Below, piece after piece: positions 1 through 4,583 of a stretch of 4,583 nucleotides of DNA. The first letter of the stretch is position 1, and every line of letters begins with the position of its first letter. The position numbers and the translations under genes were made by a program. The notes beneath the pieces are model-generated. The model had not been told where the DNA came from. It worked only from the letters and a program-made list of their open reading frames with translations, and did no database searches. The stretch lies in IMG/VR virus record IMGVR_UViG_2711768022_000007; one strand, written 5' to 3'. This stretch comes from a virus. Its lineage: Duplodnaviria > Heunggongvirae > Uroviricota > Caudoviricetes.

Positions 1-79
1 GCTTTGAACTCTTTAGAGTAACGTTGGGTTTTTCTGCTCATTATTAGCTCCTTCTGATGCCATTCTATTTCAGGAAGGA

Positions 80-343
80 GTGTCCGTTAAACTCAGGCTA
101 CCTCAGGTTATTCGCTTCTGGGCATGGGCGGATCAACAAATGATAGACGGTAATGCAGATTGTAACGCTCGCGGCGTTACAAAAAGTGCAATAGATCGCA
201 TCACTTTTATGTCTGGTTTTGCTGATGCGTTAATTCAGGTTGGATGGCTGGTCGAAAATGACGGAGGGCTTTCTCTACCTAACTTTGAACGTCATAACGG
301 AAAAAGCTCTAAAAAAAACGGGCGGTTACAAACGAGCGAGTAA
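80..343 (+). CDS. Phage replication protein, YdaU-like (DUF1376-type), N-terminal fragment; frame is interrupted
   Basis: ORF from GTG at 80 (the only canonical start after the in-frame TAG at 14-16), preceded by AGGAAGGA at 72-79 with short spacing. It ends at TAA 341-343, but a protein-like reading continues in the -1 frame from the A8 run at 311-318. It sits directly upstream of the DnaC-like gene, the position of the initiator in Rac and lambda. The family name is from recalled synteny, not from a search. Confidence 0.55.
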   Translation: MSVKLRLPQVIRFWAWADQQMIDGNADCNARGVTKSAIDRITFMSGFADALIQVGWLVENDGGLSLPNFERHNGKSSKKNGRLQTSE

Positions 344-2498: not shown

Positions 2499-3185
2499 AT
2501 GACCCCAATAAACATATTTATGACAGTTGCTGATTTCAAACGGCCCAAATTGGAGCTCCCAAACGGGGCAAACAAACTACTACTGCACTCTTGCTGTGCT
2601 CCATGTTCCGGTGAGGTGATGGAGGCGCTTCAGGCCTCGGGAATCGACTACACCATCTTTTTCTACAACCCGAACATTCATCCTCAGAAAGAGTATTTAA
2701 TTCGTAAGGATGAGAATATTCGCTTTGCTGAACAACACGGCGTGCCGTTTATTGATGCTGATTACGACACAGACAACTGGTTTGAACGAGCCAAAGGAAT
2801 GGAATGGGAGCCCGAACGAGGGATCCGTTGCACCATGTGTTTTGACATGCGTTTTGAGCGGACAGCGCTGTACGCCGCTGAAAATGGTTTCAGTGTGATC
2901 AGCAGTTCACTGGGCATTTCACGCTGGAAAAATATGCAGCAGGTTAACGACTGTGGGCGGCGAGCCGTCGCGCATTATCCGGGCATGGTGTACTGGGATT
3001 ATAACTGGCGCAAGCAGGGCGGCTCGTCCCGTATGATTGAAATCAGCAAGCGCGAAAAATTCTATCAGCAGGAATATTGTGGCTGTGTGTATTCTCTGCG
3101 CGATACCAATCTACACCGCAAATCTCAGGGACGCCCTCTTATCAAAATTGGTCAACTCCACTACGGTAAAGAAGAGAAGGAGTGA
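2499..3185 (+). CDS. queH: QueH-like epoxyqueuosine reductase (DUF208 family, Fe-S, cobalamin-independent)
   Basis: 228-aa ORF carrying the motifs I associate with DUF208/QueH: [25 protein letters not shown] and YCGCVYS. The alternative start at 2520 is in frame; neither ATG has a clear Shine-Dalgarno. Assignment is by motif recognition only. Confidence 0.75.
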
Positions 3186-3206: not shown

Positions 3207-3236
3207 TTGATTTCATATTGGCGAGGTAAGTAGAAT
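3207..3236 (+). promoter_or_regulatory. Candidate promoter of the hok/mok mRNA
   Basis: TTGATT (3207-3212), 18 nt spacer, TAGAAT (3231-3236). The predicted start near 3243 gives a 5' end GGGUGCUUGAGGCU..., which resembles the 5' end of plasmid R1 hok mRNA as I recall it. Confidence 0.45.
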
Positions 3237-3297
3237 GACTGCGGGTGCTTGAGGCTATCTGCTTCAGGCATGAACACCAAAAGGCAGATAGAGAAAA

Positions 3298-3364
3298 GCC
3301 CCAGTTAACATTACGCGTCCGGCAAGACGCTTAACATTAATCTGAGGCCAATTTCATGCTTTGC
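3298..3364 (-). ncRNA. sok: Sok-like antisense RNA (antitoxin of the hok/sok type I system); approximate extent
   Basis: Minus-strand promoter-like elements: -35 TTGCCT (complement of 3394-3399), 17 nt spacer, -10 TAACCT (complement of 3371-3376). The transcript would start near 3364 and be antisense to the mok translation-initiation region (mok ATG at 3356), as in known hok/sok loci. The 3' end is not defined; I found no clean terminator. Confidence 0.35.
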
Positions 3365-3568
3365 ACATGTAGGTTAGCCTCTTACATGCCGAAAGGCAAG
3401 GAGAAGCAGGCTATGAAGCAGCAAAAGGCGATGTTAATCGCCCTGATCGTCATCTGTTTAACCGTCATAGTGACGGCACTGGTAACGAGGAAAGACCTCT
3501 GTGAGGTACGAATCCGAACCGGCCAGACGGAGGTCGCTGTCTTCGTAGACTACGAATCCAGGAAGTAA
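3356..3568 (+). CDS. mok: Mok-like regulatory reading frame (in-frame N-terminal extension of Hok)
   Basis: ATG at 3356 with GAGG at 3344-3347. The N-terminal extension MLCTCRLASYMPKGKEKQA-MKQ... parallels chromosomal MokC (recalled as MLNTCRVPLTDRKVKEKRA-MKQ...). Same frame and same stop as hok. Confidence 0.5.
   Translation: MLCTCRLASYMPKGKEKQAMKQQKAMLIALIVICLTVIVTALVTRKDLCEVRIRTGQTEVAVFVDYESRK
3413..3568 (+). CDS. hok: Hok-family type I toxin (HokD/Gef-like, 51 aa, membrane-active)
   Basis: MKQQKAMLIALIVICLTVIVTALVTRKDLCEVRIRTGQTEVAVF... is near-identical to chromosomal HokD/HokC as I recall them until the last seven or so residues. AAGGAG at 3398-3403 lies 9 nt before the ATG. Single transmembrane helix plus the conserved C-terminal Cys region. 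Confidence 0.85.
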   Translation: MKQQKAMLIALIVICLTVIVTALVTRKDLCEVRIRTGQTEVAVFVDYESRK

Positions 3569-3576
3569 GAGTGACC

Positions 3577-3604
3577 GGGCGGGGAGCTGATCCCATCCCC
3601 GCCC
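3577..3604 (+). promoter_or_regulatory. Stable stem-loop in the hok mRNA 3' UTR
   Basis: Perfect 9-bp inverted repeat GGGCGGGGA (3577-3585) and TCCCCGCCC (3596-3604) with a 10-nt loop, just after the hok stop. It is not followed by a U-run, so it is structural or regulatory rather than a terminator. Confidence 0.5.
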
Positions 3605-3644
3605 ACCTCTGATGTGTCAGGCATCCTCAACGCACCCGCACTTA

Positions 3645-3688
3645 ACCCGCCCATCGCTGTGATCTCTCAGCGTTTCGGCGGGTTTTTT
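3645..3688 (+). terminator. Rho-independent terminator of the hok mRNA
   Basis: Outer stem ACCCGCC (3645-3651) pairs with GGCGGGT (3677-3683); inner stem CGCTG (3655-3659) pairs with CAGCG (3668-3672); a T6 run follows at 3683-3688. Confidence 0.6.
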
Positions 3689-3708
3689 GTTGTTTATTTC
3701 CGGTGAAT

Positions 3709-3736
3709 TTGATTCGCGCACCTTCGCAGATAGAAT
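3709..3736 (+). promoter_or_regulatory. Candidate sigma70 promoter for the downstream ORFs
   Basis: TTGATT (3709-3714), 16 nt spacer, TAGAAT (3731-3736), located just after the hok terminator and about 80 nt before the 3818 ORF. Confidence 0.35.
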
Positions 3737-3817: not shown

Positions 3818-4105
3818 ATGAAAATCGAAGAATTGCGTGAAATTTTTAGTGAAAATGGCCTCTATGCTGTGCGCGTTGAGAATGGAGCGATTGTCAGCCA
3901 TTGCCGCATTAGATGTTTGCAATCTCAACAAAGGAAGAGCGGTGCTGTGTTATTTTATTTTTGTAATGGACTTCTGACGGACGGTTTTATTTTGCGTGAG
4001 GACGAATTTGTCACATCATTACGGGTTTTGAAAGAGATTGGTTTTAAGGCTGGTTTTCTGCTTTTGCTGAAGAATAAACTCATCTACAATCTTGAGCAGG
4101 ATTGA
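3818..4105 (+). CDS. Hypothetical protein, 95 aa, AT-rich orphan ORF
   Basis: ATG at 3818 with AAGGA at 3805-3809 and an 8-nt spacer. Codon periodicity looks coding. It is visibly more AT-rich than its neighbours (about 38% GC in the first 60 nt by hand count). The stop TGA 4103-4105 overlaps a TTG at 4102. I do not recognise the family. Confidence 0.5.
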   Translation: MKIEELREIFSENGLYAVRVENGAIVSHCRIRCLQSQQRKSGAVLFYFCNGLLTDGFILREDEFVTSLRVLKEIGFKAGFLLLLKNKLIYNLEQD

Positions 4106-4143: not shown

Positions 4144-4497
4144 ATGGCACATATACAACTGGTCAAACAAACCTCTTCCGGATTACTTCTCCCGGCGACG
4201 CCGGAGAGTTGCGATTTTCTGCATCAAATCAAAATAGGTGAGTGGATACACGCAGACTTTAAGCGTGTGTGTAACTACGCATTCCACAAGCGTTTTTTCA
4301 AACTCCTGCAACTGGGTTTCGATTACTGGACTCCGGTCGGTGGGGCGATCACGCCTCGCGAACGAAAACTGGTGTCCGGTTTCGTTGATTACCTGTGTGA
4401 ATCAGTAGGCCGGGAACATACGCCAGCTCTGAGCGAAGCCGCAGAGCAATTGAGGTGTACTGGCAATAGCGGACACTACCATTTGTTCTTTTTTTAA
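4144..4497 (+). CDS. Conserved lambdoid nin-region hypothetical protein, possibly DUF1367-like and shorter than expected
   Basis: ATG at 4144 with GGAG at 4133-4136 and a 7-nt spacer. The track start is the TTG at 4102, which overlaps the upstream stop. The N-terminus MAHIQLVKQTSSGLLLPATPE...ADFKR...AFHKRFF resembles my memory of a prophage family common in E. coli nin regions (DUF1367); this is tentative. It ends at TAA 4495-4497 and no other frame continues it. Confidence 0.5.
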   Translation: MAHIQLVKQTSSGLLLPATPESCDFLHQIKIGEWIHADFKRVCNYAFHKRFFKLLQLGFDYWTPVGGAITPRERKLVSGFVDYLCESVGREHTPALSEAAEQLRCTGNSGHYHLFFF

Positions 4498-4508
4498 GCA
4501 GCCATCTG

Positions 4509-4583
4509 ATGATATTTTTCCCTGAAGGCTGCCGGGGAGATATTCCCCAGACGAGAGTGACGACGCTGACGATTGTAGAAAAT
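4509..4583 (+). CDS. 5' end of an ORF running off the window (MIFFPEGCRGDIPQTRVTTLTIVEN...), unknown product
   Basis: ATG at 4509, 11 nt after the upstream stop and in the same orientation. There is no clear Shine-Dalgarno and only 25 codons are visible. Confidence 0.25.
   Translation, partial: MIFFPEGCRGDIPQTRVTTLTIVEN

Follow-up and report, generated by a model that had tools for sequence, protein, structure and literature searches.

An apparently intact hok/mok/sok type I toxin-antitoxin locus in a Rac-like lambdoid prophage remnant

We analysed a stretch of 4,583 nucleotides of viral DNA (IMG/VR record IMGVR_UViG_2711768022_000007), which we call the window, and find that positions 3207-3690 very probably represent an apparently intact hok/mok/sok type I toxin-antitoxin locus in a Rac-like lambdoid prophage remnant. 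Hok/sok systems are RNA-controlled toxin-antitoxin modules of lambdoid prophages in E. coli and Shigella, and the family has been studied for decades. The locus at 3207-3690 is a known hok/sok system in a known setting and is in this sense already known. An initial annotation had proposed that the hok/mok/sok locus is complete and has a fold-back (fbi) architecture. Our analysis agrees with this proposal: the Rfam family RF01794 is matched at 117 bits and the Pfam family PF01848 at 81 bits, existing annotation concurs, and the tac/fbi pairing covaries. On the level of the sequence, the locus contains a Hok/Gef reading frame, a match to RF01794, mok with its Shine-Dalgarno sequence and an antisense RNA with its promoter; on the level of RNA structure, it contains a tac/fbi pairing with covariation, a stem of tac with ucb and a metastable 5' hairpin (Table 1). 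No IS element, frameshift or stop codon interrupts 3207-3690. The family membership, all sequence elements and the conservation and covariation of the helices were observed directly for this locus.

Table 1. Features of the hok/mok/sok locus. Positions refer to the window.
Feature	Position	Strand	Remarks
hok mRNA promoter-like site	3207-3236	+	TTGATT, 18-nt spacer, TAGAAT; 9/12 consensus matches
tac	3243-3254	+	GGGUGCUUGAGG; 5' end of hok mRNA; three alternative partners; Rfam model position 1 at 3243
Metastable hairpin, 3' arm	3261-3271	+	partner is 3245-3255 when the RNA is nascent or truncated
Sok antisense RNA	3294-3364	-	about 71 nt; annotated sokW misc_RNA of VT2-Sakai maps exactly here
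ucb	3296-3302	+	AAGCCCC, mok anti-Shine-Dalgarno; pairs with mok Shine-Dalgarno (closed form) or tac (open form)
mok Shine-Dalgarno	3343-3346	+	GAGG, 9 nt upstream of mok ATG (3356-3358)
mok ORF	3356-3568	+	70 codons, in frame with hok; maps onto annotated mokW
Sok promoter	3371-3399	-	-35 TTGCCT (3399-3394), 17-nt spacer, -10 TAACCT (3376-3371)
dcb homologue	3375-3385	+	UAGCCUCUUAC; contains TAGCCTC (3375-3381)
hok Shine-Dalgarno	3400-3405	+	GGAGAA within AAGGAGAAG; CAAGGAG almost invariant in alignment
hok toxin ORF	3413-3568	+	51 aa; PF01848; identical to WP_014532198.1 (HokD)
GC-rich hairpin	3578-3605	+	just past hok stop; in MFE structure; inner stem 96% paired in homologues
fbi, fold-back inhibitory element	3625-3637	+	CCUCAACGCACCC; pairs with 3243-3254 in MFE structure
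Terminator-like hairpin	3644-3690	+	AACCCGCC...GGCGGGUU then U run; in MFE structure

To assign the locus to a family, we scanned the entire window against Rfam at a permissive threshold, and RF01794 ("sok") was the sole match. The mRNA leader (3243-3418, plus strand) covers the model from position 1 to 157 of 157 with 117 bits (E = 4e-27). This is above the gathering score of 59, and the covariance-model check that had been suggested for hok/sok is thereby answered positively. As RF01794 models the strand of the hok mRNA leader, the Sok antisense RNA is the complement of the match. Compared to the Rfam consensus, the Sok hairpin carries a 16-nt insertion. Furthermore, the 51-aa product matches the Pfam family Hok/Gef (PF01848) over the full 42-position profile with 81.1 bits (cutoff 22, E = 4e-23). 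Two narrower models gave scores under their cutoffs, namely NCBIfam NF007279 (PRK09738; 55 bits, curated cutoff 73) and the HokA equivalog model (38.9 bits, cutoff 89). The protein is thus outside these two models, and its membership in the Hok/Gef family is unaffected.

The nested arrangement of the reading frames is as originally described: the 70-aa frame contains the 51-aa hok frame in the same frame at an offset of 57 nt, i.e. 19 codons. Among 38 homologous loci (see below), the mok start codon and GAGG are kept in all 38, and GAGG lies invariantly 9-12 nt upstream of the ATG. In the MFE structure, this Shine-Dalgarno sequence is sequestered by ucb. The frame of mok relative to hok is more variable. 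It is in frame in 24 of the 38 loci, including the window locus and hokW, and out of frame (offset 1) in seven, including the R1-type plasmid loci; in the remaining seven, mok is a 19-codon reading frame that ends before the hok start. This variability fits the view that the translation of mok matters and not the Mok protein (PMC9841398).

On the minus strand, a promoter had been recognised at a place from which an antisense RNA would run over the mok start. This observation holds, as both hexamers are present, their position is conserved and the annotated sokW coincides with the predicted RNA. The site coincides with the promoter sites of R1 Sok and Sp5 sokW and is positionally conserved across the 38 loci, nearly all of which keep the TTG and TA...T of the hexamers. 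With 7 of 12 consensus matches the promoter is weak, which is why a generic promoter scan gave no call at this site. Because the generic scan missed both the Sok promoter and the terminator, we relied on positional homology. An antisense transcript that starts near 3364 would cover the mok AUG together with the GAGG of its Shine-Dalgarno sequence. Judged by its sequence, the locus has a putative cis-encoded antisense RNA with its own promoter, which would cover the translation start of mok. In the predicted Sok RNA, a short unpaired 5' end precedes a long hairpin, which is followed by a U-rich tail (GGGGCUUUUCUC); the fold energy of this RNA is -31.9 kcal/mol (z = -4.7). We also observed that the region of the hok Shine-Dalgarno sequence overlaps the Sok -35 hexamer on the opposite strand.

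The -10 hexamer of the hok promoter-like site (TAGAAT, 3231-3236) is conserved in Sp5 hokW and precedes Rfam model position 1 by 6-7 nt. At the other end of the mRNA, the GC-rich hairpin just past hok has an equivalent in R1 that ends shortly before nt 361, where the truncated mRNA ends. The hairpin at 3578-3605 may thus be the stop point for 3' exonucleolytic trimming. The terminator-like hairpin was missed by the generic scan because its loop is 25 nt long. Two homologues (L006 and L014) have the same terminator stem with a short loop, and the terminator loop in the window has about 29 extra nucleotides compared to close relatives.

The central structural feature of hok mRNAs is the pairing between their two ends, which the initial annotation had proposed for this locus based on complementarity. 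We observed that GCGGGTGCTTGAGG (3241-3254) is complementary to CCTCAACGCACCCGC (3625-3639) over 14 bp with one bulged base (3631). Promoter spacing and the alignment to Rfam and R1 put the start of the RNA near 3243-3244, so that probably 11-12 of the 14 pairs are within the transcript. The MFE structure of 3243-3690 (-191.2 kcal/mol, z = -8 compared to shuffles) includes 12 pairs between 3243-3254 and 3625-3637. The 5' element has three alternative partners in total: 3625-3637 in the MFE structure of the full-length RNA, 3261-3271 in that of the truncated RNA and 3296-3302 in the Rfam consensus structure. When the 3' region was shuffled with preserved dinucleotides, 43 of 2000 shuffles gave a duplex that was equally or more stable (p about 0.02). 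As this test is only weakly significant, we collected homologous loci, comprising 47 loci from one-genome-per-species contigs and six plasmid loci. Their mRNA 5' ends were located independently with Rfam, and for the first 14 nt of each we searched the 200 nt downstream of the hok stop codon for the partner that pairs best. Of 39 loci tested, 34 have a duplex of 10 bp or more at 45-56 nt past the stop codon. These loci span Escherichia, Kluyvera, Photorhabdus, Pantoea, Erwinia and related genera, Citrobacter and plasmids.

The two partners change together among the loci, with combinations such as GGGUGC/GCACCC, GGGCGC/GCGCCC and GAGA/UCUC. In a MAFFT alignment of 38 distinct loci, the column pair 4/432 is UA in 20, CG in 14 and UG in three loci and unpaired in one; the pairing thus shows U-A to C-G covariation in 14 sequences and passes the covariation check in homologues that had been proposed for it. 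When the 5' and 3' ends were re-paired at random among the loci, the summed energy of the own pairings was better than in 5000 of 5000 re-pairings. The distal half of the helix has 15-16 unpaired cells per column when counted column-wise. These poor counts arise because the position of the bulge differs between clades and MAFFT loses register, whereas finding the duplex in each locus separately recovers the distal helix. Imposing the full-length fold of the window locus on the alignment resulted in 77% paired cells, compared to about 41% when the partners were slid, and 59 pairs of this fold have changed on both sides across the homologues. We thus conclude that the match between the 5' and 3' ends alone is modestly above chance, and that its conservation and covariation in homologues make it convincing.

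We then compared the folds of 3243-3690 with and without the 3' end, a check that had been proposed earlier, and obtained the tac/fbi pairing in the full-length RNA and a local 5' hairpin in the truncated RNA. This hairpin between 3245-3255 and 3261-3271 corresponds to the metastable 5' structure known from R1 hok mRNA (PMC9841398). Across the homologues, 92.8% of its cells are paired, and four pairs have two-sided changes, including U-A to C-G and G-C to A-U. The changes affect tac positions that also covary with fbi (C for U at position 4 and A for G at position 12).

The third partner of tac is ucb. In R1, ucb is the mok anti-Shine-Dalgarno sequence near nt 70-72 and has tac nt 4-6 as its partner (Le Rhun et al. 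2022, PMC9841398); in the truncated R1 RNA, the tac stem has A70 opposite U6, and the mok Shine-Dalgarno sequence then pairs with dcb (PMC9841398). The Rfam consensus structure contains this tac/ucb stem between model positions 1-8 and 52-58, which correspond to 3243-3250 and 3296-3302. The stem is 97.4% paired but invariant, so its comparative support consists of conservation only. For the helix of the closed form, in which ucb pairs with the mok Shine-Dalgarno sequence, 93.9% of cells are paired and A-U to G-C changes occur at its base. The helix of the open form, between the mok Shine-Dalgarno region (3344-3348) and dcb (3377-3381), is paired in 100% of homologue cells. In the full-length MFE structure, the dcb element is instead paired with 3565-3576, across the hok stop codon.

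An unconstrained fold of the truncated RNA does not contain the tac/ucb stem. The same is the case for R1; the unconstrained MFE structure is thus an unfair test, and we compared constrained energies instead. The energetic cost of enforcing the stem is 13.2 kcal/mol for the full-length RNA and falls to 1.6-1.9 kcal/mol when the 3' end is at 3606-3624. For R1, the same calculation resulted in 12.2 kcal/mol for the full-length and 0.2 kcal/mol for the truncated RNA. When the stem is enforced in an RNA that ends at 3606, 3377-3381 takes over from ucb as the partner of the mok Shine-Dalgarno sequence. After truncation, the open form remains 1.6-1.9 kcal/mol above the MFE structure in the nearest-neighbour energy model used here. 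Going by these modelled energies, the tac/ucb stem is switched by the 3' end, as in R1.

Based on these elements, we infer that the locus at 3207-3690 would be expressed, processed at the 3' end and toxic in the following way, where the steps follow those of plasmid R1 and the window locus has the sequence elements needed for each of them. A stable mRNA would start near 3243, from the promoter at 3207-3236, and its nascent 5' end would fold into the metastable hairpin (3245-3255 with 3261-3271). The finished RNA would be locked by the pairing of tac (3243-3254) with fbi (3625-3637), and in this closed form the mok ribosome-binding site (3343-3346) would be held by ucb (3298-3304). Slow trimming of the 3' end, probably to the GC hairpin at 3578-3605, would remove fbi. 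In the trimmed RNA, the 5' end would pair with ucb (3243-3250 with 3296-3302) and free the mok ribosome-binding site, which would then pair with dcb (3377-3381). The short-lived Sok RNA (about 3364 to 3294, minus strand) would bind this open form across the mok start, and RNase III would destroy the duplex. Once Sok is gone, mok would be translated and, coupled to it, hok; the 51-aa Hok peptide would then damage the inner membrane.

The closest characterised relative is the hokW-mokW-sokW locus of Sp5 (VT2-Sakai, also 933W), an Stx2 phage of E. coli O157:H7, which has 91% DNA identity to the window locus. Its annotated mokW, hokW and sokW map exactly onto 3356-3568, 3413-3568 and 3294-3364 (minus strand), respectively. 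Both loci have mok in frame with hok, an identical fbi sequence and a location in a lambdoid prophage. HokW and the window Hok are identical in 50 of 51 residues and differ in one C-terminal residue. Between 3243 and 3640 there are 35 differences, and the seven differences between SokW and the window Sok are all in its first 16 nt (3349-3363). Sp5 furthermore differs upstream of the -10 hexamer and downstream of fbi, does not have the terminator found in the window, and is flanked by different genes. For Sp5, it has been found that HokW arrests growth (Takada et al. 2021, PMC8621323) and that the SokW RNA, with 71 nt of complementarity, counteracts HokW in a partly RNase III- and Hfq-dependent manner (PMC8621323). 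Both the hokW and the SokW RNA were detected by northern blot, and SokW vanishes after mitomycin C treatment (PMC8621323). hokW-sokW is thus an experimentally established type I toxin-antitoxin system, which speeds lysis and doubles the release of Sp5 after induction (PMC8621323).

The hok/sok locus of plasmid R1 (parB) has the elements in the same order as the window, namely tac, metastable hairpin, ucb, Sok target, mok Shine-Dalgarno and dcb, followed by the hok Shine-Dalgarno, hok, the GC hairpin and fbi. An R1-type sequence in our set (L051) aligns with the window locus throughout, and R1 shares the energy switch at the 3' end. The toxins are more distant: HokW is 44% identical to R1 Hok (PMC8621323), and the window Hok has 42-44% identity to the Hok of R1-type plasmid loci (tblastn). 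R1 also differs in that mok is out of frame with hok, in a C in tac where the window has U and a G in fbi where the window has A, and in being located on a plasmid instead of a prophage. The chromosomal hokD (relF) type of E. coli is closer in its toxin, as the Hok protein is 90% identical and the NCBI pipeline names the identical protein HokD. However, the leader of one locus, L007, is degenerate: it scores 48 bits against RF01794, which is below the gathering score, compared to 117 bits for the window leader, and its 5' end is not GGGUGCUUGAGG. L007 encodes a Hok that ends in TAYEPEE, and we take it to be K-12 HokD/RelF. K-12 hokD is not known to have a working mok/sok region.

The locus also occurs outside the window. 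A region of 494 nt is 100% identical in the chromosomes of two E. coli strains, FDAARGOS_943 and FDAARGOS_944, where the identical reading frame is annotated as "type I toxin-antitoxin system toxin HokD" (hokD). In FDAARGOS_944, this copy is located in a Rac-like lambdoid prophage between the QueH gene and genes for DUF1367, DUF1364 and DUF1133, and the prophage around it contains integrase, Cro/CI, lysis and head genes. At the megablast level, 4713 of 5426 complete E. coli genomes carry related copies, the median number being two per genome, and the best matches among phage records are Stx-converting phages. In the window, the locus has QueH upstream and a 95-aa reading frame downstream. Both window edges are IS600 ends, and the right-hand IS600 copy truncates the DUF1367 gene. 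Furthermore, compared to FDAARGOS_944, a +2 frameshift in a run of A and the deletion of 10 bp affect the replication-region gene. The prophage surrounding the locus is thus decayed.

This decay raises the question of whether the locus itself is a silent relic, which would belong to the hok/sok family by descent and have lost its expression or toxicity, as have several hok copies of K-12. Several hok loci of E. coli K-12 are indeed inactivated, and besides the degraded, IS600-bracketed prophage, the decayed leader of L007 (48 bits against RF01794), whose Hok is 90% identical, points in the same direction. Nevertheless, we consider a relic unlikely. The stretch 3207-3690 is uninterrupted, all regulatory elements are present and base-pair as in functional relatives, the DNA is identical to the copy in the far more complete prophage, and the toxin is a single C-terminal residue away from HokW, whose toxicity is experimental. 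It is even harder to believe that the complementarity of the mRNA ends is a chance match in GC-rich sequence with no structural role, and we assign almost no weight to this explanation. Apart from the 43 of 2000 shuffled 3' regions that do equally well or better, -22.6 kcal/mol is also obtained with an unrelated stretch of 200 nt from the window; yet chance does not explain why the duplex recurs at the same distance past the stop codon in 34 of 39 loci, why UA (20) and CG (14) replace each other, why own pairings beat all 5000 permutations, and why the pairing is in the MFE structure.

Besides these alternatives to an intact locus with fold-back pairing, a different refolding step had been proposed, in which GAGGCUA (3251-3257) pairs with UAGCCUC (3375-3381) as a tac/ucb-like element. 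The 7-nt match itself exists and is an exact 7-bp complement, with 90.7% of cells paired in the homologues. However, the downstream segment is dcb and the match is not the tac/ucb refolding element; it exists because GAGGC occurs in both tac and the mok Shine-Dalgarno sequence. In 11 of 38 homologues, tac position 12 has changed from G to A without compensation, resulting in an A-C mismatch in this pairing, whereas the same change is compensated in fbi (TCTC) and in the metastable partner (AU in 11). Enforcing the pairing costs 6-10 kcal/mol even in the truncated RNA, compared to 1.6-1.9 kcal/mol for the stem of tac with AAGCCCC. In addition, UAGCCUC pairs with the mok Shine-Dalgarno sequence in 100% of cells, and R1 genetics place ucb at nt 70-72, opposite tac nt 4-6 (PMC9841398). 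We thus reject 3251-3257 with 3375-3381 as the refolding step, which is highly unlikely on this evidence, and retain the tac/ucb stem between 3243-3250 and 3296-3302.

Beyond the correct annotation, the significance of the locus is small, and the hokW clade already has an experimental paper (PMC8621323). Genome pipelines annotate the toxin reading frame only; positions for mok, Sok and the RNA elements are supplied in Table 1. The window copy keeps an intact regulatory leader, unlike its decayed relative L007, and our fresh set of 38 loci reproduces the coupled covariation that has been published for the 5' end of hok mRNAs.

Lastly, we consider what the locus might do. In R1, the 5' end of Sok starts target recognition. 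One speculative idea, to which we give only a small chance, is that the differences at the 5' end of Sok are a specificity code against cross-protection among hok/sok copies, which would make the locus a private addiction or exclusion module. If this were true, the locus could serve the small IS600-bracketed prophage remnant privately. More generally, a putative role as a stabilising or abortive-infection module, as proposed earlier, is plausible. For the hokW clade, the sole direct evidence on the role is that hokW-sokW aids lysis and phage release after induction (PMC8621323).

Both edges of the window (1-93 and 4451-4583) match the ends of IS600 (IS3 family). The hok/sok locus, a type I toxin-antitoxin locus at 3207-3690, is therefore situated within a prophage remnant of ~4.4 kb that is flanked by two IS600 copies. 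The right-hand copy cuts the DUF1367 gene (start 4144) short after ~103 residues. At the other end, the replication-region gene (80-782) is broken in the window, whereas it is intact (WP_038340159) in FDAARGOS_944, an E. coli chromosome with identical hok/sok DNA in a more complete Rac-like prophage. Compared to this chromosome, the gene has two additional A in the A run at ~311-318 and a 10-bp deletion near 449 that removes a single repeat unit of the TCCCCCTAAA type. Furthermore, the central part of the ydaV/DnaC-like ATPase gene is hidden by 276 consecutive N (1223-1498). The density of IS600 raises the suspicion of a Shigella-like genome; an identical Hok, the 51-aa toxin, is encoded by the Shigella flexneri locus L004.

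Genes and a promoter-like site around the hok/sok locus
Feature	Position	Basis or remark
ydaV/DnaC-like ATPase gene	start 789	IstB-like and DnaA ATPase matches
DUF977 gene	start 1515	after the ydaV/DnaC-like ATPase gene
QueH, epoxyqueuosine reductase, prophage-borne	2499-3185	PF02677, 220 bits
Second promoter-like site	3709-3736	TTGATT / TAGAAT, 16-nt spacer
95-aa ORF	3818-4105	downstream of the promoter-like site; hypothetical in E. coli annotation

The QueH gene is located immediately upstream of the hok promoter, and both hexamers of the second promoter-like site are identical to those of the hok promoter. For the 95-aa ORF, no match was found among the Pfam and NCBIfam profiles. At 3652-3676, the loop of the terminator hairpin of hok/sok contains an additional insert of ~29 nt with a small stem of its own. 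Two homologous loci, L006 and L014, share the terminator stem with the window; however, their stem is closed by a short TTCG loop.

Further hok/sok copies were observed among the homologues. The second hok copy of E. coli ECMA0423 (L007 556-703), whose Hok ends in TAYEPEE, has a degenerate leader that scores 48 bits against the Rfam model of the hok mRNA leader (RF01794), which is below the gathering score of 59 bits, and its 5' end lacks GGGUGCUUGAGG. As a decayed copy, it provides a contrast to the window, where the locus is intact. Tandem or multiple copies are present on Photorhabdus contigs (L030, L041), with several loci per genome; for instance, L030 contains two Rfam matches (556-703 and 1185-1333) that are 630 nt apart. 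In Erwinia sp. CGal63 and Kalamiella (L043 250-397, L046 362-389), repeats of the CRISPR-DR4 type occur ~100 nt upstream of hok/sok.

The antisense RNA Sok (3294-3364, minus strand) differs from SokW, its counterpart in the Stx2 phage Sp5 (VT2-Sakai), at seven positions. All of them fall within the first 16 nt of Sok (3349-3363), and the other 55 nt contain none. Judging from this sequence comparison, such differences at the 5' end could limit cross-talk among the hok/sok copies of one genome.
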